NCBI GenBank assembly: GCA_023515725.1
Contig: JALDTO010000266.1
Span: 929,042 to 993,041 of the forward strand
Direction of reading: 5' to 3'
Source: Amoeboaphelidium protococcarum X5
Taxonomy: Eukaryota > Fungi > Aphelidiomycota
DNA: 64,000 nucleotides
Shown: positions 2,869 through 64,000 of the stretch, in pieces
How positions within the stretch are numbered: the stretch's first letter is position 1
Layout of the letters: each line of letters starts with the position of its first letter
The notes under the pieces: generated by a model
Databases searched by the model: none
Seen by the model: only the letters and a program-made list of their open reading frames with translations
What the model was told of the DNA's origin: nothing
Program-made: the position numbers and the translations under genes

Positions 2869-3480
2869 GATGTATACGTCCGTTAGACACTGCTCGCCGA
2901 GAAGAATCAAGGTTCGGGAATAATGAACAGCCCAGATGGGCAAGTTTTAGGCGACAGTTGTCGTTCGAAACCACCGCCACTTCGGTCTATCTCTGTTTCA
3001 GCAAGCAAGACCTTTCCCGCCCGGGTAAAACATTGCTGCCGAGTATATGCGCCGCGCTGATCACAATCAACTACCTCCTCCCTGTTAGTTGTTGTGTCGG
3101 CACTTTTTATGCTGCAATTGAAGATCATCGCGTTGGTGTGTGTGTCATAATCTCGTGTGAACTTTGGTAGCCACTTATAATGTTCTTCTATTCAACTCTT
3201 ACGCGAAGTACATATATGTACACAGTATACATTTCTATATATGCTATGCAATGTACAGTAATTACTGTATGATCAAGCGCCGAGTCGGAAAATCAAGTCT
3301 AAAAATAGCCGCCACTACGCAATGCAGAAAAAAGCATATCATGATTACTGTACATCATCTGGCTGTTACAAGATGCATTGCCTTTACTCATATTATCTTT
3401 TCTTACTCATTGTTAAAAATAAATTGTATATAAAGTGCATATTTAAAACCCAAATACTGCTTCTGGTTTGTTGAAAGGGA

Positions 3481-6318: not shown

Positions 6319-6344
6319 TTTTTGTGTGTTGGATTTAAACTATT

Positions 6345-6941
6345 TCATGATTGAATACGCAATTCATATGCATAATATCCATCTTTATCCATCAGAGAAT
6401 ATTCATTCCGAGCCATCTTGGATATCTGCAAACGATTGATAGACACTTCGCCCAACTCGAAATCTTTATGCAAAGTCATCAGTTCCGTAGCATCAAATGG
6501 CCTGTTGTCAGCGTACTTGACATTGATCAAAGTCATGTGCAGTTTCAGCTCTTCAAAGGCAAAGCGCGTCGCTAATCCTTCGCAAATGTACCGATTCAAC
6601 AGATCCTTTAACATGGTCTCTAACAATTAATCAGGACATTGTACATTCATATAAACAACCTTGGCAGATTTCATTGTTCCCTTCATTAGGTGAATACCCT
6701 GCAATTTAACGCAAATGTCAGCTGGTAGTTGAAACTCACGTAGTACGCGCTTACACCTTTCCAATTTGTCAGCATCTTGAAGATTAAACATCCCCAAAGT
6801 CAAATGCAATCTATTCCAAGGGAGAATCGCGTTATCAGGTACTCCGAGAGACTTCATCTAAGTCACCAGCTTACTATGGGACTCGGCAATGCAGTCATAA
6901 TTCAATGGAATAGAGAGAAAATGTGTCCATTATCTTCGCAT
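6345..6941 (-). CDS. 2H phosphoesterase, AKAP7/ASCC1-like
   Basis: WTHFLSIPL plus two HxT motifs (LHLTL, LHMTLINVKY); PFDATELM; start codon uncertain. Confidence 0.8.
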
Positions 6942-7161
6942 ATTTGACACTCTATATTTAAAACGACTTGCTGTGATAACAAAAGGATTAGTTTGGAATT
7001 AGATTTCCGTGTCATTCATTATCTAATGAAGATGCGATAAGTCAACGTTTCAGCTTTGTTCCAAGTACCATAAACGATAAAACAGACAAAAAGAGAACTT
7101 CGAGATGGCTAAAGATGCAATATATACTAATCTATAAACAAGCTACTATATGCAAGAACTG

Positions 7162-8925
7162 TCAAACGAATAGAATGGAAATCCTTCTAATCCAGTTGCC
7201 AAAACGGGCTGTGACGCCTTTAGTGCCTCCCAACAACTAATCCCTGGTCGTGGCACCAAATGTCTATGCCAATTCCTGATCACCTTCCAGAACGACGCGT
7301 AAGAGCCCATTCCGCGCCTTGTCAAAGTAGGTCACAGTAATGTATTGAAAATGCTCACTGAAAACCAATTATTCTCGTACTATAGACTCCCATTACTTGA
7401 TAATTTCTATGAACAGGTCCAGAGTCCATACTATGATATTGTATCGCTTTATAGGCAAGTCTAAAACTAATCTAAATTTCTAGATCCACTACTACCAAAT
7501 AACCATTTCTTTGCATTCCACCGACATATCCTCAAAAGGTAAAGCCTAGATACCTTATGGCAAACTTTTTATAGTATTCTTTATTTTCCACCTATTTACT
7601 TCGGCTTATTGAATATCCATAGAGCGAAACTTCAAATTCAACGGGGCAAGGCCATTTTGCAGAATCTCAGTCAAATAATGGTCAATCACTATGTCATTTT
7701 TTATTAGTCGCAGAAATCCATTCTGATCCAGTCTTTAGATAATAATAGTTTCAAACCCGTGGAAGTCAATAAAGTTATCGCGTGGAATAATATTACGCCA
7801 AAAATCCCCATAAACTGATCGGGCATGATCGACCCAATGCCTATCACTTAGATGATGATCATTAAATCGGAATCTAAATTCAAATCTAAACTTCAAGTCT
7901 TTCTCCAATGACAAAGACCGCAACTCAGCAACAAGCTTCTTTATTATTAAGGCATATGTCGCAGCATTTTTTCTATAAGTATTAAGAAACATCCACTGAA
8001 ATCTAAATCTCACCAATCTGGTATGGGAAAGCTGCGTACCCTGCTTAAATCTTATATTGCCATAATTGGAGTCCTAAGCTAAAGATTCTAGCATATATGA
8101 CGAGACTTCCAATTCCAAGACTCTATGTGATTCTATAGTTTAGAACTTATGAGATATAGGACTCAAAGACTACTATTTCAGCCAAAAAGCGTGCAGATTA
8201 CCTCGTATAATGGATCCCCAATTAGACGGATATTACTCATCTACATTGACACCCAAATAAGTAACGCCAGACTTTTGCTGGACAATATAGGTAGTTCCAA
8301 CTAAATCAGCTCTAAATATACGCTTCTGTCTAAATTACAACTAATCCAGAACGCGTAAATAAGACTTATCCTAACGCGACAATAAATATCCTTTGCATTG
8401 GAAGCTGACAAAAAAATCTTAATATGCTTCTGCTGGGAATTTCTTCGTGCTTTCAGACAATAGCTTTATAATTTAGATCTACAACTTAGTCAGAATACTG
8501 TTGTAAGAACCGTCACCCTAAGCTAGGATAGTTATCCTATTTTAAAGAATCAAATCCTATCCATACCGAGTAATGCTTTAGATTGGAGAATCATCCTAAG
8601 GCCAACGAATCTTGAACAGCAGCATATACACACTCGCTCTGAATTCCATAGACAGACACCACACTGACCAGTCCGGCTCTAATTATAACGATAGTCTCAA
8701 GGTGTTTTTATCAACAGAAAATAGGCGTCTGAGATGCCCACAATGCTATTTGACGCGATGGAAATAATGCAGTGGATCCTCAGTAGCTAGGAGTGTTGGA
8801 CGTCTCGGTATCACTCGTTGAAGAATATCGCGGCCTTAAGCATCATCAAGAAGTCGTAGATAAGTCTGAGAGCCCTTCACTAAATGAAGCAATAAGGCAA
8901 TGCATTTGACCAGCACTAGCCGCAT
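7162..8925 (-). CDS. Putative secreted protein of unknown family (587 aa)
   Basis: Open frame under TAR=Gln with leader MRLVLVKCIALLLHLVKG; the C-terminal block is shared with the adjacent paralog. Confidence 0.75.
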
Positions 8926-12960: not shown

Positions 12961-15900
12961 TCAATCCTGTTCAAAATTAGTCTGCTAGTCGTAGTAAGCG
13001 TAACGCTACTTGATGCTTACCAGAGCTTAAATACAGGCCAGTCTCTTGGCAGCAGCACTGGTGTTGCTATAAGCCTGACACAACTGGTCGTCATCCAAGT
13101 AAATTTTACAAATGGACTGATTTACACCACTTTCGTTACACATAATCTTAACTCTATCCTGAGCTATACCGAGCTTGGAACATTCTTCATTAAAATCGCG
13201 CACAGGATTAGCCAACTTTGAATGGTCAGACTCGATACAATGCCGCTTGATAAATGGGACCAAGACGCTATCACCAATGATCTTCCAGACAGCGTGTAAG
13301 TTACAACCAGAATTTAAATACAATGCACCGACGAAGCTTTCAAAAACATCTCCAAGAACTTTAGGCGCCTCAAATGGCATCATATTAGGATGGATATTCT
13401 AATTTGCTTGAACTGCAAGCCATTGAGTAAACAGGTCAATATCCGTTTGCAGTTGCTGAGTTTCATGCCTAATATATTAGTGCAATCCTAGCTGACATCC
13501 CAATCTAGCGAACGAAGTATTGTTCACTATGACTTGACGAATATCGCTCATATCAGAAGATTAAGCCGTGGGGAACTAATCATGAATATACTTGGTCACA
13601 AGCCAATCTAAAACAGCATCACCAAGAAACTCTAATCTCTAGTAAGACAGCACACTACTATTGTTCTTGGACAAGTGAGTGAAAGCTTCAGCAAAGATAC
13701 CAACATTGATCATCTCAAAGTTCAATTGCTGCTCTAACGCACTGTACTTTCCACTAATCACTTTCTGTAATACTTATTTCTACGCAGTTACAGCAATAGA
13801 ATCCAACTCATGCTACTAAATAAATCCAATTCGAACCAAATACTTATTCACTGCATCAGCATTTCCAGCACCATCATCATCATTAAATGAAAAACAGTGA
13901 GCACCTACTAAACTCTCAAAGAAATCGGCAATCATCTTACTGCTCAACTAATTTTCAACTAGGAGGCGATCATCTCTGCCCATGGCTCTCTTCATACCGC
14001 ACCATCTCCACGTCTTGAGATTTAGGGGAGATGCAATGAGATAGCCAGGCAGCTCATTTTACACTGATAGCTCATACAGTTTGGCATTGCTAACTCTATT
14101 AGCACGCAGAGTACTAAGTCCGCCTTCATCAAGTTGAGGCTGCATTACGTACAGGATCGCAGTGACAATGTACTTCAAGTAAGAATCTCCCAAGGTCTCT
14201 AAGCGTTCATAATTGACATCCTCATTAGCATTAGGAGCAATGAAAGCAGGATATAGCTACTCAATGGATAAACTGCAATCAAACTTCTTCTTGAATTCTT
14301 AAATAATCAGCTGACTCTCAATCTTGTGCAAAACAGAAGGCACTAAAGAGAATAAAGACTGTACATCATCATAGAATTGGACAACATAGCACAACTCTGG
14401 AGGAAGATAGACAAACGCGCGACGTTCATCTTGCCGCTACACTAACCTCTTTGGACGCGAAAGGTTCCGCAGTCCTGGAGCATAAAGTGCCTGGATAAGA
14501 TTAAGATCTGGTCTTTTTAACTTAATTTTATACTTGTCCAGGTAATACTACTCGAATGTTCTGTCATTGACATTGATAAGATCTTCTTCCTATTCCACAT
14601 TGTCCTGATCGTCAATCTCTCCCTCCTCCACACTATCACTTTTCACCTTGTTGACATCAGCACCAATTTACACGGCAGACTAATTTTCCAAAGAGTCAGA
14701 CAACTTGGACTTTTAAGTAAAGTCACTCTTACCACATGATATATACTTGTTCATTGTATGCTGTGCAATAATGTATTAATCTCGCGTACGGTATTCAACA
14801 CATTCGGATAGGGGATGATCAGATGCTTTGTAACTGCAAACCTTTTCAATCGTATCAAAATCTATAGAATATCGCTATTACTCACTATTGTCACCATATT
14901 AATATAGCGATAGAGGAGCGACATAGTACCACTTCTTACCATGCATGGGCAAGGCTGTAGATAATCTATTAACACCATTAAACTAAGTGTCAACACTATT
15001 GATTAGCAGAGTAAATACTTTTAGATCGAATTCCAGAATTTACTAAAACTAAGTAAGCGAAAGCTGTGTCAACTCTTGGCCAGTACAGTCCACTGAGCAT
15101 TTTACAACCTGACCATCTATGTAGACACTAAAGTCACAAAGTTCCGCATCAATTTTAGCGAGAGTTAACAGTCCAAATACGCGACAACTCATACTATTTC
15201 CACCTTATTCATTTCCCATATTTTAATTGATTTTAATCACAGTGAGCCATCTGCACTCAGAAACATCATAATGTATCAGTGGGCGACCATGAACGATACC
15301 AGATAGAATTTCATTCAAACTGAGATACTGGACAAAGTCGACTTCAACGTGTAAACTCTATGCCACAACTTTTCTATAATATTTCACCTTTTTAACGTCC
15401 ATGAACACCTTCTTCTCCGACTTTATGGTGAGCTTAGCCTGCTGCTCTAGTTATTGAATCTATATGGCAGCCTAGTGGTACGCGCTTCTACGAGCAATCA
15501 AATTATTCAACCTCAATCCACCCAAGATTTCCCTAGTAGACAATAGGGATGGCTGAGGCAACTTGAGAGCTATCTGATGTTGTAAACAATCACTGCGAGC
15601 ATTATACTACAGAGGCTATATACTCTACCTTCGATGATAATTGTCCAAACTAAGATTGGAGCAATGTTACTGCACCACCTACATTGACTATTCTAAACTA
15701 AAATCGGCAAATCCCATCAGAGAGAAGATTTAAGAATACAACTCTGGGTCCATTTTTATCAACAAGCCATTGCGACTGTACTATAATCTCTTACTCTCCT
15801 ATTGCAACAGATATTCAACTAATGGCGACTAAATTTATGATGAATGATCATCTCCACTCTCAGTCTTAATAAAGAAGCATTACTGATTAGAAATTACATT

Positions 15901-17046
15901 CCAAAACTTGTTCATGTTCACACTCTCGTCAAATATAATCAATAGATCAACATGACTAAGAGGAGGCTCAGTGGATATAACGATATTACAATCTTGATTA
16001 TTTCCATTATAGTTGCACTTGATCTAATCCAACTTGAGACCATTAAAGAAATCACATAGCAGCTTTGCCGTTGCCTTTCTATCAACAGCAATTAACACTC
16101 TAGGTGGAACTTTACTTGTATCACTATTATCATTCACGGTAATTACTGCAGATTCATCAGTCACACCTCTATCCTATATCAACGATTATAAGATATTGAG
16201 TAGAGAGAACACTTTATCAGAAATGAGCCTCAGGTCTAAATCATTAATCAACTGAAGTAAATTAAGTTCAGGTAAAGCAGTCTTGAACAGCATCAACTAA
16301 TCCACACTACCGCCGCTATTCCCCAACTGCTAATGAGAAAACTCCACCATTTGGGGAATGGCCACTAATTTGAATACACCGTCTTCATCAACATGACTCC
16401 TCTTTAGATGAACTTTAGGCACGGACCGCTTCAAAGTGTTAATGTACTCCAGTGCCAATGCAGCCTAAAAGTATAGGCCCAACTCTTTCATATCATGAAC
16501 CATCTTAATCATTTTATTCATCTTATTGACGGCAGAGGTATCGCGTGCAGCATTATGTAAATTGACCAACAAGGACATATAATGACTATACGCGACATCC
16601 ACATCACAACCAGATTTTAATTAGAATTGGGGAAACTAATGATGAGCATTATTGGGAGAGTACAGCTGAACGGAACGCGTAATTGGTTCATCAATGTACA
16701 ATGTACGAGACTATTGTGACAGAGAGGATGAAGTGAAATTTACAACAATCACTTGCTTCTATGACACATACTTTCCAGGTACATTGGCAGCAGACTCATC
16801 ATCATCAATAACAATACACTTGACACTGTGGATCATGTCAGAAGGGGTTGAATTGAAAGATACCAGAGAAGTGTCAATGTAATGTACATAATCACCGGCA
16901 TTTCCATAGATAACGACAGATTTTGAGTACAGCTCACACAGAACTGCAATCAAAAATTATTTAAATTACAAACTGCACAGAACTCTATGTAGATCTTACT
17001 GCAATTTTTACACTACTTGCTACACAAACTATTGTATGGTGTCCAT
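12961..17046 (-). CDS. Dicer-like RNase III protein with degenerate helicase region, PAZ-like region, tandem RNase III domains and dsRBD (1361 aa, intronless)
   Basis: NYERLETLGDSYLKY, SKMIADFFESLVGA, SYQRLEFLGDAVLD, APKVLGDVFESFVGALY, C-terminal NPVRDFNE...AAKRLAC. Confidence 0.9.
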
Positions 17047-39279: not shown

Positions 39280-39702
39280 ATTATTCCCCACACAATCTCT
39301 GCTTAAAACTTTTCAAATAAAATGAACCAAAAGGCTGTAGCAATAGTTGGAACCTTTCAAATCAAATAGGTCAAATATGGAATAAAGAAGAAACAGAAGC
39401 GAAAATTCACTGTCCAGAAAACAAGTTGTGTTTCAATGAATGATCACGTCAATAACATTATCTGGTATAAAGATCATAATATTAACATTCAAAAGAAATC
39501 AATCAATCAATCAACACTGAAATTCTCCGAATGACAGAGGAAACAACGCGTTTCAAGAATATTATTATCCATGAGTGAATGAGTGAGTGATTGACAAGGC
39601 ATTTACAGTAATCATCAACGCTAAGCAACTTGATGATCGATTCTGTGCACGTTCGTAAAGAAAGAGCGCGCTTCTTCAATCATTCATTCCCTCGTTTCGT
39701 TC

Positions 39703-39843
39703 TTTCGTTCGTTCGTTCTTTCGTTCGTTCGTTCGTTCGTTCGTTCGTTCGTTCGTTCGTTCGTTCGTTCGTTCGTTCGTTCGTTCGTTCGTTCGTTCGT
39801 TTGTTCGTTTGTTCGTTTGTTCGTTCGTTCGTTCGTTCGTTCG
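39703..39843. repeat. (TTCG)n tetranucleotide microsatellite, ~140 bp
   Basis: Direct reading, with a few TTTG variants. Confidence 0.95.
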
Positions 39844-40026
39844 GTGAAACACGTCGATTTCTTCTTCCTTTGAAGATCGCTTTGAGGCGTTTCCATTAAT
39901 GGTGTCGTCTTCATTCATTCATTCTTTCTTTTGCTGTATTTTTGGGAGGAAAATAGACTTTTATCTGAAATATTTATTCCCTCTTTTTTTTCTAGAAGAA
40001 TTAACTTTCATTCCCAGTATAAATTA

Positions 40027-49691: not shown

Positions 49692-51198
49692 TCTTGAATT
49701 TACCTTAATCCTTCCCAAAGTCTGAAGATGTATTGCTAGATTTTATTTAGGATATTCCATCGACTGTTTCTTTAAGAAAGCATTTAATGCTTTTATGTTT
49801 GGAGAAGAAGTATTTGAAATGCATTGATATACGCCCTCTTAACTGCGTGCACTAGAAAATGCGTGCAAGCACGGTCATATGGTCTTTAGTGTGAGTAAGC
49901 ATATTCCACACGTAAACTTACATCTGAGATTGACTAATGACTGTAGAGGAAAATGTCACCAAAAAAAAATTGAAATAGAGATAGGACACGTCAAACAACC
50001 AAGTTGCAGTGTAACTACACGAGACTTCCAAAACTTCTTTTCAAGAGCAATATATAAGCGCTAACTTTAAAGTAGATGCTTGCGAAAGTATGAGGAGCCA
50101 CCAATATAGCAAACAATCTGAGAACGACGCGGCGAATCCAGAGGCAGTACATTTTGACTTATTTAATAAAGACACGTACAACTTGATGACATCCAGCTAT
50201 ATAGCGTATTTTGGCTACTTTGCTGTACCGGAGACATATCCAAGCGTCAGCAAAGCTTTGAACAATCCATACTTCTTTGATGTTATATGTTTGCAAATTT
50301 CGAAATCGCGGTCAGCAACACCATTAGAAAACAAACATAATTTAACAGAATGCATAGACTTTGTGCAACTAAAATCTACAGAGGATGCAGACAAATTTAT
50401 ACCGCACTTATATTCTAATTGATGCGATCTTAAGCGCTGATACAGGTGGAATTACTTGTCGCGATGCACTTCAACAAAGCAATCTTTACAGAACTATAGA
50501 CAGTCATAACATGTAAGACATCTGAGTTAAGAAAGTCCTTTATCACACACAGAACAGCCGATATCAACGGCACAGTCGTGATGCTTGAAATAGAGCTTAT
50601 CGTTACAAGCCTCCACGCAATCACGAAAAGTAATGGTGGGATCAGGTCTGGCATTTCTCCGTCTAAATGACTAGCTAAACCCCCTGGCTTTCTTCTATCT
50701 TTTATTCTCCCTCTTATTCTCCGCCATTTGGTCACCAGTTACACGCTAAACACGTCAAGACCAAGCAAATCGTTCAACTCAAGATCAGCCATCTAGTCCA
50801 CTCCACCTTCATTGGGTTATAGCTAATTACTGTGGCGTTTAAATCGGAGCAGATGATCAGGTGTTACAAGTAAATGATATCAATCTTCATGTTTAAACAT
50901 TCGAAAGTGGACTCTTACAGAAAACAGCATTATTGAATTTGTTCGCTGGCGATGGCGTTTTCATAGCAGGCACAGCTTTACTCTTGATTTAAGAAATCTT
51001 CTTAGATCCATATTTCTCATAAACAGACACTTTATATCGTCGATGTTGCTTTCTAGGTATCTTTATTTTAGTCATGACTGTATAATTGTCAAGCGAAACG
51101 ATCTAAAAGGGAAGAAATAGTTTTTCACAATTTTCTTCGTTTCAGAAACAAAGCTCATGATCGCCGCGCGAAAAAATTGTTAGTTCACCACTACTGCA

Positions 51199-52875
51199 AT
51201 GCCGCCAAGCCATGCACACCCACTACTACTCGGCACGTCCGACTTTGACAAGATTATTGAAAAGGATGCTCTATTCATTGACAAAAGTCTCTTTATAAAG
51301 GAATTCATGAATGATGGCTCCAAGGTCGTTGCCATTCTTCGTCCGCGTCGATTTGGCAAAAGCACCAATCTGTCAATGCTCAAGTCATTCTTGTCATTGA
51401 ATGCCCAATCTAGTCATTTTGATCGCTATCTCATCGGCAAGGAGAGTGAAATTGTATAACAGCATTGTGGTAAATATCCTGTTGTAATGCTTGATCTCAA
51501 GGACTGCAAAGGTGATTCATGGGAGCAGATGTACAGCTCTGTTTGGCTCTGTATTCGCTAAATGGTTTTGCGTCATCGACACGAATTGGCCGAAGCAATT
51601 GCACTACTCTCAAGAGATATGGACTTCACAAGAATGACTACTCACGCTAGCGAAGTCGTTGTCGGTTCATCACTTAAATGGCTTACCCGCGAGTTGAATG
51701 AAAAGTACGGCAGGCGTGTTGTTGTATTGGTGGATGAATATGACGCGCCTTTAAACCATGCATTTCGTCAAGGTTACTATAATAAGGCCTCAGAATTCTT
51801 TGGTCTGCTGTACTCTTCGGCGTTGAAAAGTAATGATGCTCTGGAGAAAGCCTGTTTAGTGGGCATTGTAGAAGTTCGAGGCGCTGGTATTCTATCTGGT
51901 CTTAATAATATTCAAGTTTACTCGGTCGCTGATAGAAGATATTCAGCCTTTTTTGGATTCTCAATGGATGAAATTGGCTCATTGGTTCCTGAAGAATCGA
52001 CTAAGAAGAATGTCAAAGACTGGTATAATGGATACTGTATCGGGAATGATTTGCTCATCAACCCTTGGTCGTTTATGTGTTGGTATAGCCGTGATTTTTT
52101 TGATTCCTACTGGGCTGGCTCGTCATATACGGAAACTATTGCTACAATTCTCAAACCACATTTAAAATAATCCTTAATGGAGATCTTTGCATTGCTATAC
52201 GATCAGAAGCAGATGAAAGTGTCTAAACTCAGCTCTCAGGTTAATTACTCAAACGAGGATTGGGATACCGATGGGATTATTCATTTTCTCATCCACACTG
52301 GCTACCTGACTTATCGTGTAATTGATGATGATTCATTTAGATCTGGCGTAGCTTGGATTCCTAACAACGAGATTCGTAGTAATTGGGAGTCAAATATTAA
52401 GGATCTCTTGCGTTAACAATTCGTACCTCAATTTGGGTCTCGTATTGAAGAGGTATTTACTGCAGAGACTCCGAATATATCGGATTTGCAAAATGTGATG
52501 CAGGATATGTTGATGTTTTGCTCTTCACACGATTTAACGAAGAAGTATGAAAATTCGGGCCACGTTTTCTACTTTGGGGCATTTCTTTCCATATTGCATT
52601 ATGGAGTGAACATCACAGTGACATCGAATCTCGAATCTGGTCTTGGCAGGCATGATATCCGTATCCGATTTCTTCATTTGAAAAGGGTTTTCATATTTGA
52701 ATTCAAGCTTTCGAAGCGTGAAAGTGATCTTCAGGAGGATGCTGAAACGGGCTTGAAACAAATCATTGATAGGAATTATGTAGCCGATTTGCGCGATTGT
52801 GAATGCTTCCTAGTTGGCGTTGCTTTTTACGGCAAGAAGTTGTCTGAGTTGGCAGTCAATAATATCCAAGTATGA
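51199..52875 (+). CDS. AAA-ATPase-like plus PD-(D/E)XK nuclease protein (AAA-ATPase_like/PDDEXK_9 architecture), intact and intronless
   Basis: GTSDFDKII..FIDKS..RPRRFGKSTNLSML, VLVDEYDAP, SGLNN, WYNGY, NPWS, GYLT, IPNNEI, SNLESGLGRHDI..IFEFK..QIIDRNY. Confidence 0.9.
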
Positions 52876-53100
52876 CATAAACATTGGTTAACTTTATTGT
52901 CTTGTCCTTCTAATTTCTCCTCTATCGGGCTCTATTTCTTCCCTTTCACATATTCTCTTTTCCGCTTAAGAAGTAATATCTTGTATCTGACTCTTTTAAA
53001 ACAAATAAAACGCTTGTTTTCTTTTGCACCGGTAGTGTTTTGCACCTTGCACCCGGAGAAACGCACCGAACTCGCTTTGTTACAATCTCGACCGTCTCGC

Positions 53101-55533
53101 ATGTCTGGCAGGAAGCGTTCTAGAGCAGTGTAGAGTGACTCGTAGCCATCTGGAGGTGGTATCACCACCTCCAACAGTAGTACTGGCATCCCAGCCGTTG
53201 ATGAGTGTGCTGGTGTTGGCAGTAGTGTCGGCGTATCCGCCTCCTCAAGTTCTGGTCTGGCTGGGTGCGAGGCTGAAACAAGTGTTGTTAGCATGAATCA
53301 AACTGCTGATATCACTTCACAAAGTTCTGCTCAAGTCAGTGCTGCTTTCAATAGGTAGCTGGAGAATGAAGATGAAGATGACGACGACGATTACGACTCT
53401 GATGATGGTCTGGATGATGAGCAGTTGGCGAAGAAGGTGAAGAGACGCAAGAAGTCGGAGAACAGCCATGTGTATCGCATTGAAGCGGCGTACAAGTATA
53501 AGCTGGATGAAGGCATTGGAGAGACGTTGAAGCTGCTGAGGTTGACTCGATCCGACGTATCTGTGCCACTCACTGGCGGTAGGCCTTTGGCTGTGAATAG
53601 TATGTAAGCCTACTAGAAGCATTACAGAGGATTGCGGTACTTTTTTGCGCTAATTGGTGACTACAGCTCGAGTTTAATGCTGCTTCCTAACCCCCCGCAG
53701 TACACACCGTCAATGAACGCCAAGAGCATCATTTTGTTTATCAAGTTCAAGCGTAATGAGAAGGGTTCTTTGCTAAAAGACGAGAATGGCAACGCTGTGA
53801 AATGTGTCTATGGGCACGATATCAAGTGCTAGGGTGGTTGGAATATGCCACAGAATGTTGACCAGTTGTTATCGGCTGTCTCTGTGCTGCATGATAGTCG
53901 TAATTAGAGGGGGGAGTACAGAGATATCTGCGAAGAGTGCATCCAACGTTCTGAGCGTGGTGATAGATCTGGCTGTCGGTTCCATCCGATGGCTCCTCGT
54001 ATTTGGCTGGGTGGAGATCCAAAGAATTCTTCCCTCATGACTAACATGTAGAGATTGAACTCCCGCGATGGATGCAGCTACGTGTCCGAAGGCAGCTAGC
54101 CGCTCACACCTTGGGAATTACTACGTCTCCGCGAGTATTTCATCTCGAAAAATGATGCGAAGTCATTCATGATGTGGACGATGATTATCGTTAGTATCAA
54201 GCTATTTCTGCGCAATGATGAAGTCACCGATTTGAAAATTCATGATCCTAGGCTGGAAAATTGTCTCAACAAGGATCTTGCGACCTTTCAAAGTGATGGC
54301 AGTATATCTTCCCTTGCTTTCTACATTAAAGGCAAGTCTGATCGTGTTAGAGTGTGCTTGACTCTTTGGACGGATTATGATGTGCCCGAATTGTGCCCGG
54401 TTCGTGCGCTTTTGACGTGGATTTTTATTTCTGGGATTAGAACTGGATTCTTGTTCCCTCAAGAGAGTACACTGGATGCTGTGAAGCAAGTTGGGCATGC
54501 GGCGTACAACATCTCTTACGTATCTTATCATAGGCAGTATCAGAAAGCTTGTAAGATTGCTACCGGCAATCCCGATGGTAAATTTGGTACGCACACTAGT
54601 AGGAAGACTGGCTATTTGCTTGCTGTTTGGGGAATGGGATCAGAGATTGACATCACTAAGAGTGCGCGACACGCTTCGTCCGCTAATGCCGCATTGTATA
54701 AGAAGGATGCTAGCTATTTGCTAGAATTAGCGAAGACTAGACGTTTGGACGTGTCTTCCGTGGTAAGCAAATTCAGATCAGCCTACTGTGAGTAGCTATA
54801 GATGGCTCGCAGTCTGAATGCTGCCCATTCTAGAGGCAATTTTTGTCTGCAGCAGGTGAGTCAAGAGATTGTTCGTAGCTTATGTGGATTATCTGATGTT
54901 GATGCAGTTGGTGGACCTAGAGTGATTTACGATGCACTTCTCCAGTTGCAGAAGAAAGAGACTGTGCTGCAGCTTATTGAGGCAAAGTTGAAAGAAATTG
55001 CACCTAATGCCACTCCGGAGGAGATTAATGAGCTGCGTAGGATGCTTGAGCTTTATGCGAATGGATTGATTGCTGCCACTCAATCAGCTAAGTTGAAGTA
55101 GCCAAAATCTACTCTGACTTCTCAATAATCTTCTTCCAGATAGTTACGTGAACAAGCTGCGGTTCACTCTGATGATGAACTCTATGAATCCGATGAAGAA
55201 GACACTGACGTAGCTGATGTTGTACCTGCCATCACAGCTGTTCAGTAGGATGAAGTTGTGAATGATATGCCTGGGAGAGAGAAAGTGAGAAAAGCGAAGA
55301 CTGCCATGGCGAAGTTGGAGGCCATTCTTGCAGTGGATGATCCTGGCTCAACCGTCGGGTTATCAGCTGGCGCCAAATCATTCTACGTGAAGCAATACTG
55401 CCCGATCATGAAATGTCTGAGAAAGCACTTTGGCGGTGATTTGGATAAGTTCATCGCACATTGGGGGAACTTCAAACCAACTAGCTTCAAGACAAACAAT
55501 TGCTCTGGTACCATGGATGAGTGTAGTATTTGA
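53101..55533 (+). mobile_element. Crypton-type tyrosine recombinase transposase (810 aa), intact
   Basis: Catalytic residues FLRNDE (R), KGKSD (K), GTHTSRKTGY (HxxR), SARH (H), ALYKKDA (Y); LCPVRALL; Cys/His cluster CEEC..GCRFH..GDP. Confidence 0.85.
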
Positions 55534-55674
55534 ACAAGACAGATAATATGGAGACTGAGATTGAAAGTGGATTTAATACAAAAAGTTTAATGCAAAATCA
55601 TTGAGGATTTGTTTGAAACAACTGACTTGTCTGTTTTCTGCGAGATCACCGTCGCGCGCTCGATCGCTCGCGCA

Positions 55675-55994
55675 TTCTTCCAACGTCAACCTTAACGGTT
55701 TCCGTTTTTGCACTTTGCACTTTTAACAATAAGAGCATTTTATTCATCTCAAGCTTTCTTTCATTTCTATAATAGTTTTTACAACTTGGTAAAAAAAGTG
55801 AGTAAAATGTAGTTTATAAAAAGAAGTTCTAAAACTTTGTATTTAGAACTCAAAATTATTTAGACTAACAAGACTTCAAGGATTTACCAGCTTTTTACAT
55901 ATCAATGTAAAACTAATACGATGAATTAATAACTGGTAATCCGTATATAAAAAGATGCTTGATATTCAAATGTTTGTAGATACAGGAAGGTTGA
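55675..55994 (+). pseudogene. 5'-truncated small two-TM protein (SLATT-like) at the viral junction
   Basis: ILPTSTLTVSVFALCTFNNKSILFISSFLSFLQQFLQLGKKSEQ...YDELITGNPYI; no upstream in-frame ATG. Confidence 0.4.
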
Positions 55995-56031
55995 TTAAAA
56001 AATATTATCTTGTAAAGAAGTAAAGACTAAA

Positions 56032-56766
56032 ATGGAAGGTATTACTGAGAAGCAAATAGTGTATTTACACTCTAAATTTAGAGATTAAGGTAGCATTTCG
56101 AATCCTCAGTACATCTTAAAAACTCCAATCACTTAAGCAAAACGTGTGAAAATTAAGAGACTTCTTATTCCACTAAGTTTGTACACCTTTGACACTCGTA
56201 ATTAAAAGTTTAGTATTCAAGAAGAGACTTCAGCCACTGTTTTCAACTTTACAATTCCTCAAGGATTTTACAGCAGCACGACACTTCCAGATGTGCTGGA
56301 AACTCTTATAAATGCATCCACCACTGGAGTGTTCACTATAACTTACAATACACTTACAAACACTTTCACCTTTTCAAGTACTGAATCGTTTAGATTTGTA
56401 AGTGTAAGTTAAAATGAAGCTTACTATGAGTTGGGTATAACAAGTGATTAGATAGGTGGAGTTTACAGTACAACAGTCACAGGACAAGACTAAATAGATT
56501 TGTCAAGTTCATGTAAACAACTTTACATATAGTCAAATGTAGGAATTGCAAAAGTTCATAATACACAGAAGAATATAATGGCCTGTATAAACATCCCTTA
56601 AAGTAGTGTAAACATTGGGTTTTATTAAGATGACGGTGGTGATTATATGGACATAAACTAGTCTCAAGTTTCCACATTGGACTTTACACTTTACGACTCC
56701 CAATTCAGACCTATTGTTTCAATGTTCAAAGATTGGAGCATTGATATTATATTTGAACAAGAATGA
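56032..56766 (+). CDS. Minor capsid (penton, single jelly-roll)-like protein
   Basis: Beta-rich 244 aa with the pattern YLHSKFRDQG..LIPLSLYTF..FTIPQGFYS..L..LIN..TYNTLT..ELG..IDL..LYIQSN..LDFTLYD..DWSIDIIF, typical of PLV/virophage/NCLDV pentons. Confidence 0.72.
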
Positions 56767-56782
56767 AACTGAAGTTTACACT

Positions 56783-56817
56783 TCAAAACATATCAAAGTA
56801 ATAGTCTTATTTTTAAA

Positions 56818-56856
<39 letters not shown>

Positions 56857-57373
56857 GCTGCTGCTGCTGTGGCTCTTCCTCTTCTTCTTCTTCTTCCACT
56901 TTTTCAACCTTTTACTTTTTTACAGTCTTTACAGGTTTCTTACGAACCACTTACCTCTTTGGTTGTTGAGGTGGCTCAGGTTTCAATAAGTTTGATAATT
57001 TAATAAGACTCTTTTTATCAAGTTATACTTTTTACTTACTTGGTTTAACAAGCACCTTCTTCTTCTTCTTCTTTTTATTCACCTTTTCACTTTTAACACT
57101 TTCAATTGAAGAATCACTTTGACTTTCACTTGAACTGGAACTACAGGAACTGGAACTGTCAGTATCACTAGATTCACTTTCACTTTCACTTTCCTGTTTT
57201 GGTTTTGTTTTTTGTTTTGGTTTCTATTTCTGTTTCTTCTACCTTACAATTTCAGGCTTTTTCTTTGGTTATACAGTTTTAAATTTAGGTTCAACTTCTT
57301 ATTAAGCTCCACAATATCCACAAAACTCCACTTTTTATCCAATCTTTTTAAAACAACTTTCACACACTTTCAT
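56783..57373 (-). CDS. Viral zinc-ribbon protein with Lys/Ser/Glu/Gln low-complexity tail
   Basis: MKVCESC..FCGYCG; poly-Q encoded by (CAG)5(TAG)12; ends at TGA. Confidence 0.7.
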
Positions 57374-57500
57374 TTTAACTTGTCTTTGATTTTACTATAA
57401 TGTAAGAAAATAATTTAAAAATTGATTCATATATCAATTCAAATTAAAACGAGCTCAGTTTGATTTAAAAAATAAAATCTAAGTATAGTAATAATAAAAA

Positions 57501-58541
57501 ATGACATATTAAAACTTTTTGGCTGACAGGAAAAGCGCGTCAAGCAAATACAATGCCGAACAACTATGGGATTTCCTTGGAGATGACCTTTTAAATCTGA
57601 AGACTTTGGAGGACAAGGAACGCGTGAAGAACAAGATTTTAACAAGCGACACTTTAAAAGACACTGTTAAAAAGAGTTTCATTTCAACCTTGAACGCTTA
57701 CTTAAAAACACCAGCTTTGAACCTGTACGAACACACAGATAGAGATTTGACGATTAGATTAAATGAAGAATACTAACAGAATAAAGAACCAAAAAATGTT
57801 CATGAACACACTTAGTTAAATGAAAAGTTTTAGTAGTATTGTCATAATTTAATGAACAGAGAAAAGGTTGGTTATAGTGAATATTCACAAGCTCTTTTAA
57901 TAGCATTGTGCTTGACACAAGCCCCGAAAAGAACAGCGGATTACTTCAACTTGTAATGGAAACACATTGATATTAAAAATCAAATTATTAATTGGCCTGA
58001 GCTTTCAAAGGTGTAAAGAGAAGCTGAGCCGTAGAAATATAAATATAATACTACGATACACCAATTAATTGAAAAGATTAATTAGAGATTTGATTTGGAA
58101 AGTGAACAGTTTGTGATTGAATACTAGGGAAATCGTCTTGATGACAACGGAGGGTATGTAAAGTTTCTACGTAGAGCAAGTTAGAAGATTTTAGAATAGT
58201 CCTTGACCGGTAATGATTTCAGGAAGATTTGGGTGTGTAAAGTTCACTTTGAAAATATGAAAAACCCAAAAAAGTTATACGATAAATTACAAGAGACAGC
58301 TAAAGACATGGGAAACAGTTATAACACACTACAAAAACACTACAACATTCATAATCCTGAAACAGAAGTTGAAGCTGAAGAAGCTGCGGCTGAGGTAAGT
58401 ATTGGAACACAAACAGAGCCTTGTAAACTTGAAAACTATTTGAATCAAATAGAATCTGTGATGAAAAGATTCAATATAACTGACCCTTTCAAAGCACGTG
58501 AATTTCTGCTTCTTTGTAAAAATGACGTCACAACTCAGTGA
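57501..58541 (+). CDS. Viral tyrosine recombinase/integrase
   Basis: QAPKRTADY (R), LSK (K), TGNDFRKIWV (xxxR), AKDMGNS, LQKHY (Y). Confidence 0.78.
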
Positions 58542-58546
58542 TTTTT

Positions 58547-58570
58547 CGATTATCGTGTTTTCGATAATCG
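58547..58570. terminator. 9-bp perfect hairpin between convergent viral genes
   Basis: CGATTATCG-tgtttt-CGATAATCG in the 40-bp gap between two TGA stops. Confidence 0.4.
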
Positions 58571-58581
58571 TTTTTTTGATT

Positions 58582-59490
58582 TCAGACTGTTTTGAAAATA
58601 GCTGTAAACAAGTGAATTAATACATCTACAGCCATACTATTACCAGCTTGTTTATACATTTAAGAGTCGCTAACTACTTGTTTGAAAGACGGGGAGAAGC
58701 CTTGTAAGTTTAAACATTCTCTGGGCAATAAGAAACGATTAAGTGTGGTATAATAGTATCTATTACAAAACGTAACCAGCGTAGGACATATTTTATAACC
58801 TTATACTCCCCAGTTAAAATCAGTAACTATATAATCTTTCTAGTAATTGATTTAATCCAAGTTTTTCAATAGAGTTTTATTCTTTCTATCAGTACTAGAA
58901 TTTCCTTTAAAATTTTTACACATCATGCTTTCCAATGACGTCATTGGAATTTTAGGAGGTGTTTGATAATCGGTAATCTAAAGTGATTTCTTGATTCCAA
59001 AAATAAACAGTCTTTTTCGATTTTGCGGTAAACCGTAATCTTTAGCGTTCAAAATCTCAGTGTAAAGGTTGTAAACCTCGTCTTTTTAAAGCTCTGTTAA
59101 AAGGTAATTATACGCCGTTCCATTCTATGATTTTACAAATCTTGGCACATTTTCAAGTATGAAAATATTTGGTTTAATAGTTTGTATTGTCTTGATACAC
59201 TCTTTCATCACTTCAGCTCTTGGGTCGTCAAAACCACGTCGCTTCCCGAGCGTGCTGAATGATTGACATGGGAACCCACATACGTATAAATCAATCTATG
59301 GAAGTTTTGAATGGTCTCTTGTTAAGATATCATCATAGAAATATTCTGGTTCGTAATTAGCTTGAATACTTTTCTTAACAAATTTATCCACGTCGCAGCT
59401 GAATACATGTTTAAATGGAATCTCCATTCTTTAAAGAGCTTATATCGGAGCTTCAATACCACTACAGTCTGTTCCAATTCTTAGAACCAT
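58582..59490 (-). CDS. C5-cytosine DNA methyltransferase (prokaryote/virus type)
   Basis: TDCSGI (motif I variant), DLYVCGFPCQSFS (IV), ILENV (VI), YGLPQNRKRLF (VIII), YKQAGNSM (X). Confidence 0.93.
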
Positions 59491-59578
59491 CTTTAATCTA
59501 AAGTAGTGGAAAAATTTGTTTGAACAATCGAATGGATTGAAAATAATTTTATTATTAGTAGTAGTAAAGTAAAACAAA

Positions 59579-61114
59579 ATGGGTAAGGTTATTAACGTTT
59601 ATCACACTTCTTGGAGTAATTATGGAAGAAATTTTCAAGTTGCTGATTTAGGCAAGTAGATAGATGCGGGCGTTAGTGATGTGTCTTACGCGTTCTTTAA
59701 TTTAGTGTAAGAAGCAAACGGTTGGATTATAAAGAGTGGTGACGAATGGGCTGAGTTTTAGAAGACTTATGGAACTGATGGAAAGGCTTCTGTAGGTAAA
59801 CCTGACACGTGGGAAGATTCATCCGCTAACAACGCCGGAAATTTTGGACAACTTAGAAAGTTGAAGGAGGCTGGGAAACAATTTAATCTTCATCTGTCTG
59901 TGGGCGGATGGACATGGAGTAAAAACTTTTCACTAGCTGTAAGAACTCCAGAGTCTAGAACAACTTTAGTCAGTTCAATAATCCAATTCTTTAAAGATTA
60001 TCCAATTTTTAATGGAATAGATTTCGATTGGGAGTATGTAAGCAATGACGGTAAGAATTATGGTAACGAAGGGAATATAGCACACCCTGACGATTCTAAA
60101 AATTTTCAATTGTTTTTGAAATAGTTGAGAACTGAAATGTAAACCAACGGGTTTGGAAGTTACATTATTGGTATGTGTGTTGTTGCAGCCCCTGAAAAAG
60201 CTGTGTTTGATATTGAAAATGTACATCCGCTTGTTGATGAAATAAGAATTATGACTTACGATTTTCATAGTGGCGGTTTCGGTGAAAAAATTACAAGACA
60301 TTAAACAAGTACAAGAAAATCACAGTTTAGTAATTATTCAGCTGAAGAAGCGGTTGATTTTTACCTTTCTAAAGGTGTGCCGTCTGAAAAGCTTTTAATA
60401 GGCGTTGCTTTTTACTCTAGAGGGTTTTCCAATTCTCAAGGTTTGGGTAAACCTGCTGATGGAAACAGCCCCGACTTTCAGTTTGCTGAAGAACCCGGTG
60501 TTGTGCCCTATCATATGTTACCACGTCCTGGTGATACTGAGCTTTTTGACCCGGAAGCACAAGCAGGGTATTCTTACAGTGAAACTAGAAAAGTCTTCAA
60601 TTCATACGATACTGTTGAATCTGTAAGGGCGAAATGTAAATTAGTAAAAGAGAAGAACTTGAAAGGTATAATTGTTTGGGAATCTGCAGGTCATACTAGA
60701 GATGTTGGAGGTCCCCGTTGTTTGATTACAGCTATGAGAAATGAGTTTTCTGGTTAATCACCTGTTAATCCTCCGCCTGTAAATCCTCCTCCCGTTGTTA
60801 ATCCTCCTCCGCCTGTTAATCCTCCACCTGTAAACTCTCAGGTTTCTTAGTGGAATCCTTCAGATTTTTACAAAATTGGTGAAAAGGTTGTCTATAACGG
60901 TAAGGTGTATGAATCTTTGAATAGTTTTTAGAGTATTTCTGTGTGGACTCCTGATACAGTTCCAGCACTCTGGAAACTTGTAAGTGATAATACCCCTTCA
61001 CAGCCAATTGAAAAACCTGTTGAAAACCCCGCTGACCAATCAGCTGAGAATAAATATTTGAGATTTATTTAAGAATTACTTAAACAAATAACTGATTTTT
61101 TAGAAGACAATTGA
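59579..61114 (+). CDS. GH18 chitinase with Pro-rich linker and CBM5/12-like chitin-binding module; no signal peptide
   Basis: SVGGWTWS, FNGIDFDWEY (DxDxE), MTYDF, GVAFYSRG, SYDT, IVWE; VNPPP repeats; WNPSDFYKIGEKVVYNGKVY..WTPDTVPALW. Confidence 0.93.
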
Positions 61115-61184
61115 AAATCAATAATTGAAAAATGAAAATCAATAATCAAAATTGATTTAACCAAATCAATTGTGTGAAAACACA

Positions 61185-61466
61185 ATGAATCAAGAAAATA
61201 TTGAGAAATTGGTTAAAACACTGTCAAAAGACTTTAAAGTTTGTAAAGAGATTAACACTTATAACGGTAAGGAATTTAAGAGAGTACTTTACAAGTAATA
61301 TAACGACGAATTCATTAAAGACCATTCCAAGAGGATACTGTAAGAATATTTACACCGCTGGTTAGAGTTGTACAGTATCACTTTTAAGTTTAAGAAGGAT
61401 TATAACGAATTACTTAACCAAGTTATTAACAAACTTGAAGAGATTGACGAACCTTGTTCAATTTGA
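61185..61466 (+). CDS. Hypothetical viral protein (93 aa)
   Basis: ATG-to-TGA frame open under TAR=Gln, filling the gap between the chitinase and HNH genes. Confidence 0.55.
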
Positions 61467-61468
61467 TT

Positions 61469-61972
61469 TCAACCTTTAGGAAATTCAAGAATGAAACGAT
61501 GCCCTTAACTATTTAATTCTTCCATTGTTTAGTTTCTTATAATTACTGCGTCTTCAAAGTGTTCAAAACAACCGTAAGATTTTTTTTAGCGGTTTATATA
61601 AAAATATACCCGCCATTTCCCAGATTATTTACACCAACTGATATTACATTCCCCTGAAGTATTGTTCTTTTATTTTCCACGGTATTGATTATTTTGTTAG
61701 GGTGTAACTATTTCTAAATTGTCTAATCTGTTATCATCTTTAACTCCGTTGATGTGGTTTATATGCATACCTTCAGGTATTTCACCTACAAACATTTCGT
61801 AAATTTTGCGGTGAACTAAAACCGTCTTTTTCACATTAGTATCCCAAAATTGTAAATATCCCCGGTTATGTAAGCTCAGCTTTTAAAATTACCCCTATTT
61901 TTTATTAAAAATCTAACCATTAGAAAAATACCAATAAAAGTCGTCTTCAATACTTATAACACCTTAATTCAT
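61469..61972 (-). CDS. HNH endonuclease with C-terminal AP2-like domain
   Basis: RGYL..VHRKIYEMFVGEIPEGMHINHINGVKDDNRLDNLEIVT..N, NNTSG..ISW..GKWRV..YGCF..AVIIRN. Confidence 0.88.
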
Positions 61973-62019
61973 TTTTATCTTTAAAATACCTTAAAGATAA
62001 AACTTTAAATTAAAATATA

Positions 62020-62352
62020 TCACTTAACTTTCATAAGTATACCTCTCTACTAATGACCGTCAATTTTTTTCATTTTGATAGCGTATTTACCTTCCAACAT
62101 TTAACTAAATGAACAAGTAAATATCTTCCTTGGTAGATTAGAAGCAGGGTTCACTCTTTTATGATATTCATATAAGTCTCTAAAAGTTATAAAAACATAA
62201 TCTTTGTCTTTGATACTATATTACTACAAACTTTGTTTGTTTAACTCTATTAACTCTAGAAACCCCTGTAAATAAATCTACGCTTCTTTCACTCTTTTAT
62301 CGTAAAACAACTGGTAAGCGTTTTTAAATGCGTCTTTTACTTGTTAATCCAT
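62020..62352 (-). CDS. Hypothetical viral protein (110 aa), possibly winged-helix like a D5 C-terminal domain
   Basis: ITFRDLYEYH..IFTCSF..KKIDGHQQRGI. Confidence 0.5.
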
Positions 62353-62489
62353 ATTTTTGTATCTTTTAATTACAGTAAAATATATTCAATTCTTTAAATT
62401 ATGTTTAAGATAAAAATATTTTCTATTTGTTATAATTAAACTAATATATATCAATTTAAAGATTTCAAAATATATAATATTAAAACAAA

Positions 62490-64000
62490 ATGGTGAATTC
62501 AAACTTGGATTAAAAACTGGAGAATTTCTTTAACAACCAACCTTTTCAAGATACCAAAAGTAAGATTGAAAAGGTTAATGTGAAGAAATTAAACTACTTA
62601 CTCAGTAATAAAGATATTGATTAAAAGCACTTGGAACAGTTGAAAAAGTATCAACAAAAAGTTAAAAACTCCAAGAAAAGTGTGAGTTATTGTTACGCTA
62701 AGGATAGAACAAAAAGTGGTTTTGAGAGACTTTACGCGAGAGACGGTCAAAGTCTTCAAATGATGGAGAAAGAAATTAGAGGTTTTTTAGCTGATGACAA
62801 TTACTATGACGTTGATATCTCTAATAGTCACCCGATGATGGTTTACAATCTGTGTAAGTCTCTAAGTATAAATAGCCCTTTGATACAAGATTATATTGAA
62901 ACTAGAAGCGATTGGATATAAATGGTACAAGATGATAATTAACATTTGGAACCGTATTAGTGTAAAGCTGCTATACTTGGTGTTCTAAACGGTATGAGTC
63001 TGAAGGGAAATGAGGAGATTGAGGGAGATTTTAGTTGTTTGAAAGACTTTAAAAGTGAGGTTGACAATATTAGAAATTCCATTGTAAACTTCCAACAATT
63101 CAAATTCATTACTAGAAAATATAAAGAAGAATCAAACTTGACCAAGTTTTCAAGCGTAGTAAATCACTATGAAAGAAAATTGTTGATGAAATTACAAGAA
63201 GAGTTTACAGCCTTACATTACAATGTAGACGTCTTGATTCATGACGGATTTTTAGTGGACAAACACAAGAAAACGGAAGAGTAGTTGTAAGCTGACATTT
63301 AGAGTGTAGTTCAGAAAATTAGTGAAATATACGACTTGAAATATCTTGAACTCAAAATAAAGCCTTTTGAACACAGTTTCAGGGACTACAATGAAGAAGA
63401 GTAGAACGAAGAGAAAGAGTATAACTTTTTCAAAATGGCAGACAAATTCATAGAACTTTATGGCGATAGATTTTGTATTAGTGGAGGTATCTTATTCTAC
63501 AAGAACGATGACGCCTTTTGGATTGAAGACTCAGAATAAGGTTATCTCAATTCTTTTTTGACAAAATCCAAATTTTACAAAGAAGTGAATGAAGATTCTT
63601 AGGTGTTTGAACATTTAGTAAATTGTGATAAATTTTACCAACAACTTAGAAACAAGATGATTATAAAGTAAAAGGATAGAGTGTTTCAACCAAATCAACA
63701 GCTTTTAAAAGATAACGAAATCAATACTTTTCCAGGATTTACACATCCTACTAATTTACAAGTAAATTCAAGTGAGATTCAAGAATTCATTGACCTTGTA
63801 ATGAACTAAGCTCAAGGTGATTAAGAAAGATTTGAGTTTTTAATGAAATGGTACGCCAACGTATGTAAAGGTAATAAAAATGAGACTTGTATCATACTGT
63901 TTTCCGATACTCAAGGAACTGGTAAATCTTGTGTGAGTCAATATATTGGAGAAAAACTTCTACCTCAATTCTTTTACTAGACAAGTAATATGGAATCTGT
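62490..64000 (+). CDS. TVpol (PolA-family primase-polymerase) fused to SF3/D5-like helicase; partial at window end
   Basis: RLYA..SLQMMEKEIRGFLA..YYDVDISNSHP (motif A), CKAAIL..LNG (B), VLIHDGF (C); INTFPGF..FLMKWYA..ILFSDTQGTGKS (Walker A). Confidence 0.85.

Follow-up and report, generated by a model that had tools for sequence, protein, structure and literature searches.

In the parts of the survey by Bellas and Sommaruga (2021, PMC7805220) considered here, a chitinase is recorded in 52% of the 27 polinton-like viruses (PLVs) of the S. punctatus group, for which dissolution of the fungal wall was proposed, and in 78% of the 32 PLVs of the Chi group. The portion of its tables covered includes a GH18-type chitinase in 14 of the 25 clustered S. 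punctatus-group genomes (PC_0214 in 11, PC_0947 in 3). GH18-type matches are given there for this first group only and not for the Chi group, whose chitinase cluster (PC_0099) matches a chitin oligosaccharide deacetylase and a carbohydrate-binding domain. GH18 genes are also known from giant viruses, according to the part of PMC11265010 considered. Chlorovirus and baculovirus (ChiA) chitinases are further virus-encoded GH18 enzymes linked to the breaking of a host barrier. The baculovirus ChiA is an enzyme of the secretory pathway. The zymocin-like killer plasmids are virus-like elements of fungi that also carry a GH18 chitinase with chitin-binding domains, in this case a secreted toxin subunit of the C-II subgroup encoded on capsid-less pPolB plasmids (PMC13348850). 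No report of a virus in aphelids was found in the open literature searched or in three supplements of PMC10120064, a survey that excluded NCBI's Fungi, where Amoeboaphelidium protococcarum is filed; such a report may be in print elsewhere.

The locus described here is an intronless GH18 chitinase gene of A. protococcarum (59579..61114, + strand, 511 amino acids), located within a viral element in a 64,000-nt stretch of DNA, hereafter the window. The first-pass annotation considered a chitinase unusual cargo for an element of PLV size, which was overstated because the S. punctatus-group PLVs already carry one (PMC7805220, in the parts considered). Those PLVs resemble the aphelid element in being tied to a zoosporic fungus, in their GH18-type chitinase and in the wall-dissolving role proposed for it. 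However, they encode pPolB in 16 of 25 genomes and no tyrosine recombinase in the part of the table considered, whereas the aphelid element encodes a probable primase-helicase fusion and a probable recombinase, and its host is an aphelid with a reassigned genetic code. The best matches of their chitinase clusters are from Chlorella, Methanolacinia and E. coli ChiA (same source and parts), which suggests, in a comparison by annotation only, that they belong to other GH18 lineages. In the same parts of PMC7805220, the Chi group includes genes for a helicase-primase, a tyrosine recombinase, a C5 methylase and an HNH protein, and no integrated member of it was known. Assignment to a PLV group rests on the major capsid gene, which is located outside the window.

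GH18 proteins from giant-virus metagenomic contigs fall in the same clade as the aphelid chitinase (40-57% identity) and mostly have the same arrangement of GH18 domain, linker and carbohydrate-binding module (CBM) with no signal peptide. The aphelid protein differs from them in being encoded by a small penton-encoding element, in having Asp at position 148 (Ser in 76/120) and in its amphipathic tail. The best viral matches in fold searches were GH18 proteins labelled Mimivirus AB-566-O17 and Marseillevirus LCMAC201 (28% and 23% identity). The chlorovirus chitinase vChti-1 (11%) and the nucleopolyhedrovirus chitinases (24-25%) are distant in fold matches, so that the comparison with chloroviruses and baculoviruses made in the first-pass annotation holds as an analogy only. 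A killer-plasmid chitinase of the zymocin type was ruled out by the lack of a signal peptide and by the penton gene nearby.

The viral element and its genes

The visible part of the element (55738..64000) comprises about 8.3 kb, is 91% coding and continues past the end of the window. Its GC content is 0.32 versus 0.40 in the host flank, and the GC content at third codon positions is 0.27 in the chitinase gene, 0.27-0.37 in the element genes and 0.36-0.50 in 21 ORFs of the host flank. The observed/expected CpG ratio is 0.68 in the element, which encodes a C5 methylase, and 0.82 in the host flank. All eight complete ORFs of the element are open and end in TGA. A. protococcarum reads TAA and TAG as glutamine (PMC6299283, in the part considered), and these TAR codons make up 10 of the 23 glutamine codons of the chitinase gene, 103/193 in the element and 401/727 in the host flank. 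The similar use in element and flank argues for long translation of the element by a host with this code.

A minor capsid protein of the penton type (56032..56766, + strand, 244 amino acids) is encoded about 3 kb upstream of the chitinase. Its structural model (pLDDT 94.9) had the mavirus penton as best Foldseek match (E 3.7e-11), followed by Sputnik and adenovirus pentons, and the best VIA match was a PBCV-1 capsid chain (Z 18.5, rmsd 2.9, 238 aligned residues). This protein, with 778 relatives, agrees with a single jelly-roll penton; word-based searches for penton relatives found none. Next to it is a low-complexity ORF rich in Lys, Ser and Gln (56783..57430, - strand, 215 amino acids), with a zinc-ribbon match at E 0.005, below the cut-off. 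A probable tyrosine recombinase (57501..58541, + strand, 346 amino acids) is suggested by a Phage_integrase match in Pfam that is also below the cut-off (E 0.0048), and it had no match in PHROG or NCBIfam. Within this ORF, at 58357-58380, contigs of sequencing runs X1, X5 and X6 have an identical local rearrangement with respect to the window.

A C5 cytosine DNA methyltransferase gene (58582..59490, - strand; Pfam E 4e-58, TIGR00675 above cut-off) is divergently oriented to the chitinase gene, which is followed by a 93-amino-acid ORF with no family in Pfam or PHROG (ORF93, 61185..61466, + strand), an HNH endonuclease gene identified with Pfam and PHROG (61469..61972, - strand) and an ORF of unknown function, also searched against Pfam and PHROG, of 110 amino acids (ORF110, 62020..62352, - strand). 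The last ORF, cut by the window end (62490..64000, + strand), probably encodes a polymerase/primase-helicase fusion, with a PHROG DNA primase match (E 3.5e-7) over residues 301-488 and no match in Pfam, NCBIfam or PDB. By eye, it contains what we take to be PolA-like and Walker A motifs. Word-based search detected no longer forms of this protein, and IMG/VR, searched with the chitinase, the primase-helicase and the penton alignment, returned no relative.

No major capsid protein, A32-like ATPase or holin-like partner was identified within the visible 8.3 kb, and no terminal repeat was found at the left end of the element. Such a gene content agrees with what is described for PLVs (bioRxiv 2026.06.19.733378, in the part considered), and judging from its genes the element is likely a penton-encoding polinton-like or virophage-like virus, the virophage alternative being kept because the major capsid and ATPase genes are outside the view.

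Host flank and insertion junction

The host flank uses the same genetic code and contains genes for a proteasome subunit 7, a protein kinase, glutathione synthase and a PAZ/RNase III protein, with a Pfam family found for 11 of the 15 flank ORFs scanned. Several features of this flank were recorded on their own account. A Dicer-like ORF (12961-17046, - strand) combines a PAZ and two RNase III domains, and a receptor-like kinase ORF (3481-6318, + strand) has a hydrophobic N-terminus, a Thr-rich stalk, a likely membrane span and a kinase domain. A long tandem array of TTCG is located at 39664-39871. A gene with AAA-ATPase-like and PD-(D/E)XK nuclease regions (51043-52875, + strand), of a type usually found in bacteria, has TAR in just 4 of its 19 glutamine codons from 51199 on.

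Between the host DNA and the viral part there is a mobile element of 2.76 kb (52980..55737, + strand), delimited by contig depth and loose ends, with an ORF of 810 amino acids. This ORF had no family match; it is presumably Crypton-like, with tyrosine-recombinase-like motifs. The mobile element reaches a depth above 2000 in run X1 and is nearly identical across runs X1, X6 and X13. A single foreign flank in X1 joins position 52980 as well as position 55738, which indicates that there are copies in which viral DNA continues leftwards with no transposon, and copies in which the transposon is inserted at that point. The order host-transposon-virus in the window may be due to recombination between transposon copies or to the assembly, and the mobile element may have mediated the insertion of the viral DNA at this site.

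Domain organization of the chitinase

Under translation table 6 the chitinase ORF contains 10 TAA/TAG codons read as glutamine and stops at TGA; the standard code splits it into 11 pieces, each of 150 amino acids or fewer. The GH18 catalytic domain comprises residues 6-368 (59594..60682, + strand; Pfam Glyco_hydro_18, E 2e-61), and it was also recognized by the model, the fold search and residue conservation. An AlphaFold model obtained from a 13-row alignment (pLDDT 75.9) shows a barrel, a disordered linker, a small beta module and a helix at residues 487-510. All PDB entries listed by Foldseek for this model are chitinases (best E 1e-28), confirming the TIM-barrel fold.

The intact DxDxE motif described in the first-pass annotation is present in the stretch FNGIDFDWEY (60020-60034), with D148, D150 and E152 all kept. 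The active-site residues M225, Y227, D228, R281 and W367 are also conserved. Among the 120 best relatives, D150, E152, M225, Y227, D228 and R281 are kept in all and W367 in 118. Residue N145 occupies the place of the first Asp of the longer DxxDxDxE motif, and Asn is also the commonest residue there (65/120). Position 148, Asp in the aphelid protein, is Ser in 76 of these relatives and Asp in 30. The replacement of the first Asp of DxDxE by Ser (within P0003-P0121) is a clade-wide variant of the GH18 motif.

The VNPPP linker noted earlier consists of four units (residues 396-419; 60764..60835, + strand), and one extra unit of 15 nt, in frame, is present in the copies from runs X1 and X6. The CBM5/12-like module was borne out at residues 424-466 (60848..60976, + strand; CBM_5_12, E 7e-10), with a Pfam score of 39.2 bits against a cut-off of 26.2, and its closest solved match is the chitin-binding domain of chitinase A1 (1ED7; E 1.4e-8, 43 residues). 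The module keeps W425, W456 and W465, the Trp residues being aligned with those of 1ED7, and differs from it at the His of PHTS, which is Phe450 in the aphelid CBM; of the 70 relatives that are not gapped at this position, 62 have His.

The C-terminal amphipathic helix (residues 487-510; 61037..61108, + strand; AlphaFold model, moment 0.74) was absent from the first-pass annotation. It is found in 7 of the 10 full-length proteins of the nearest subclade and in 2 of the other 111 proteins, and is typical of this subclade.

The absence of a signal peptide, also claimed earlier, was confirmed by three observations: the most hydrophobic 11-mer among the N-terminal 35 residues scores just 0.09, the first beta-strand of the model begins at residue 4, and no Met is found in frame upstream of the start back to the preceding stop codon. 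A hydrophobic N-terminal 11-mer scoring above 1.8 is present in just 2 of the 121 proteins of the set, so the absence of a signal peptide is a family trait. The layout is that of an endolysin-like enzyme, with a catalytic and a wall-binding domain and no signal peptide. No second GH18 gene was found in the 64,000-nt window.

Relatives and phylogeny

The searches gave 706 matches. The best one, at 93% identity, is an incomplete protein encoded on a 1.7-kb contig of A. protococcarum; it does not differ from the window protein over residues 1-123 and shows 27 differences in residues 124-375, none of them catalytic. Among the best 120 matches, the 119 non-aphelid relatives show 38-61% identity and are nearly all metagenomic. 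Solved fungal chitinases show 25-31% identity in fold matches, and six matches in phage records about 29%. A recent transfer from bacteria was rejected, since the best of the 80 prokaryotic loci kept reaches only 34% identity.

A FastTree phylogeny was built from 176 of the 290 extracted domains, after removal of duplicates within clusters, most bacterial-like loci from metagenomes and two thirds of the loci from prokaryotic genomes, and 136 rows formed one clade on a long branch. With 50 chosen rows, IQ-TREE separated a 42-row clade from bacteria (support 100/100) and recovered the aphelid chitinase (P0001) within a subclade of 12 rows (100/99) that has no internal resolution; genomic settings are available for its four rows other than P0003-P0009 and P0011. 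Members of this subclade include L010, on a PLV-like contig, and L009, on a giant-virus-like one. Grouping of P0001 with the two named chytrid proteins was rejected (p-AU 2.4e-5, for a group chosen after seeing the tree).

Flanking DNA was available for 15 clade members, and those that could be placed are mostly on giant-virus-like contigs, with one on a PLV-like contig. L003 carries an NCLDV major capsid gene, and L009, L011, L012, L013 and L001 carry genes that are frequent in giant viruses (D5 helicase, RNR, NUDIX, TFIIB, MSV199). Except for L015, which was given no label, the remaining contigs were called giant-virus-like by eye, on the density and content of their genes. The PLV-like L010 encodes an A32-like ATPase along with a lipase, and its 8.8 kb contain no capsid gene. 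On this contig, at 3186-7985, two unrelated GH18 genes and a subtilase gene are found beside the ATPase and lipase genes, a possible wall-degrading cassette. The IMG/VR contig L002, from the same chitinase clade, encodes at 1-787 a protein of the GH7 cellulase family (E 1.5e-70).

All named cellular organisms with a member in the clade, five in total, are zoosporic fungi or aphelids (Amoeboaphelidium, the chytrids Blyttiomyces and Cladochytrium, Amoeboradix and Sanchytrium). The proteins of the sanchytrids Amoeboradix and Sanchytrium (P0113 and P0120) are sister proteins of this mostly viral clade (100/99), short and with no CBM annotation, and fall outside the subclade of P0001; they could represent a domesticated viral gene or a source lineage. 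In this tree, which contained no aphelid housekeeping GH18, fungal rows branch close to the clade's base at low support, and the sequences are compatible with a start of the clade in fungi or in viruses, with transfer in either direction.

Copies in other sequencing runs

Part of the element is present in 12 of the 15 listed runs, from six studies. Four runs, X1, X5, X6 and X13, were compared by contigs, none of the runs being listed as RNA. Run X1 is a possible source of the window DNA and hence provides no independent evidence. In run X6, with a different organism label and from a different study, contigs span 59214-59991 and 60812-61457. In run X5, a sediment metagenome, contigs cover 59520-60171, where 83 of the 567 bases aligned differ, and 60759-62106, joining the 3' end of the chitinase gene to ORF93, the HNH gene and ORF110. 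In this way, contigs of independent runs bridge the chitinase gene with the methylase, ORF93 and HNH genes. The first-pass annotation had named absence of the gene from other copies of the element as evidence against its proposal; the gene is found in the copies of X5 and X6.

In run X13, with the same species label and from another study, the host gene and the neighbouring transposon are covered and the element is not. Contigs prove presence and not absence, so this gap is only a hint, and the same applies to depth ratios. Depth in X1 is about 83 on the host contig and mostly 200-650 on the element, and in X6 it is 49 on the host versus 0-28 on the element, which hints at several copies in one sample and less than one per genome in another, depth being no copy number.

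Role of the chitinase

That the gene is viral and not a host gene, as first annotated, is supported by its context, third-position composition, tree position and presence in other copies, with the reservation that the tree lacks aphelid housekeeping GH18 proteins, and the chitinase gene is almost certainly viral cargo. The protein is very probably an active enzyme. The reading preferred here, to which an even chance is given, is that of a lysis enzyme that would open the host chitin wall from inside for the exit of virions; egress, that is release from chitin-walled cysts or spores, has a similar, roughly even chance of being its main role. After reactivation of the element, alone or with a helper giant virus, the enzyme would collect in the cytosol, having no signal peptide, and would come to the wall on membrane failure, where the CBM would anchor on chitin and the GH18 domain would cut. 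The amphipathic tail is probably membrane-binding or oligomerising. The targets would be the walled stages: the cyst, including its germ tube, and probably also resting spores.

The chitinous cyst wall assumed for the host lineage in the first-pass annotation agrees with the part of PMC6299283 considered, in which chitin is reported in cysts of Paraphelidium and not in zoospores or trophonts; calcofluor stains the cysts of two other aphelids (PMC3975115, in part), so that the evidence on cyst chitin comes from aphelid genera other than Amoeboaphelidium. A. protococcarum itself makes thick-walled resting spores (same source, in part). The aphelid feeding stage, located inside the algal wall, has no chitin wall, which speaks against egress, as the chitinase would be useful only in short walled stages. 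Some giant-virus hosts also have no chitin wall, according to the part considered of a review (PMC11265010). The replacement of the conserved His of the CBM by Phe450 is a further point against this reading.

An enzyme with no signal peptide would reach the wall only upon membrane failure or aboard the virion. An unlikely alternative to egress is a virion component for attachment and entry, with the tail docked on the capsid, the CBM bound to the chitin of the cyst or germ tube and the GH18 domain drilling in. Conservation of the tail in the nearest subclade (7/10 against 2/111) points to a conserved interaction surface, and the long Pro-rich linkers fit a tethered enzyme; however, L009, in the same subclade, has no such helix, and the wall-less zoospores and trophonts offer an easier way in. 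Naked stages can be entered with no chitinase, a point made for the giant viruses of zoosporic fungi (PMC13533422, in part), but a walled stage would hold the virus in. In the part of PMC8145301 considered the PBCV-1 chitinases are active and not packaged in the virion, as is the case for all five characterised polysaccharide-degrading enzymes of that virus (0/5 packaged). Egress is favoured over entry because zoospores and trophonts are chitin-free and the PBCV-1 chitinases are unpackaged. It is rather improbable that the element depends on a giant virus from which the gene was taken, serving joint release or being recent, little-selected cargo. The giant-virus-like contigs of most placed relatives and the Mimivirus- and Marseillevirus-labelled fold matches would agree with such a source, as would the mosaic pattern of the two A. 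protococcarum proteins (identical to residue 123, divergent up to 375), which points to gene exchange. But adaptation of the gene to the code of the host and the base composition of the element is complete, and its identity to any non-aphelid relative is at most 61%, which indicates that the acquisition was not recent; no giant virus of this host has been seen.

Improbable as well, and slightly more so, is a provirus enzyme that alters the host with no lysis, by loosening of the cyst wall or germ tube or by release of GlcNAc, or whose domestication has begun. Aphelids employ chitinases in their own cycle (PMC6299283, in part), and the short sanchytrid proteins with no CBM annotation would fit domestication elsewhere, but a protein with no signal peptide would not ordinarily get to the wall while the cell is alive, the viral composition and neighbours are kept, and X13, with the same species label, does not cover the gene, a weak point. 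The least probable reading, for which very little credit is left, is a host chitinase placed beside or captured by a decayed element, or a misleading assembly junction. The left junction does pass through the 2.76-kb high-depth repeat, a different flank adjoins 55738 in other contigs, and the tree included no host GH18 paralogues; against this, independent runs bridge the chitinase gene with the methylase, ORF93 and HNH genes, solved fungal chitinases are at 25-31% identity whereas the 119 listed non-aphelid relatives are at 38-61%, and the eight complete ORFs of the element are open and end in TGA.

Implications

Chitinase genes in PLVs had already been reported, so that the gene belongs to an ordinary enzyme family in a known context. 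What this locus adds, going by the literature searched, is an aphelid host fixed by the code, a connection with a GH18 clade of giant viruses, and a conserved C-terminal tail. The wall-dissolution proposal made in 2021 for PLV chitinases rested on metagenomic genomes and one chytrid insertion (PMC7805220, in the parts considered), and no test of it was found in the literature searched. In the present case the rare host code firmly ties the virus to its host, which parasitizes pond algae and can be cultured, and there are samples that contain the element and others that apparently lack it, which makes the idea testable. A broader picture, put forward tentatively and itself unlikely as a whole, would be that of a first aphelid virus, a still mobile PLV or virophage tied to its host by the code, with a one-protein lysin that opens chitin-walled cysts, its amphipathic tail acting on the membrane where other systems use a holin, and a chitinase that marks an entire clade of viruses of zoosporic fungi, both giant and small. 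Since among named cells the clade is found only in zoosporic fungi and aphelids, this chitinase may mark the hosts of the many unassigned giant-virus-like contigs, and a lytic virus of Amoeboaphelidium would bear on the crashes of this parasite in algal cultures.
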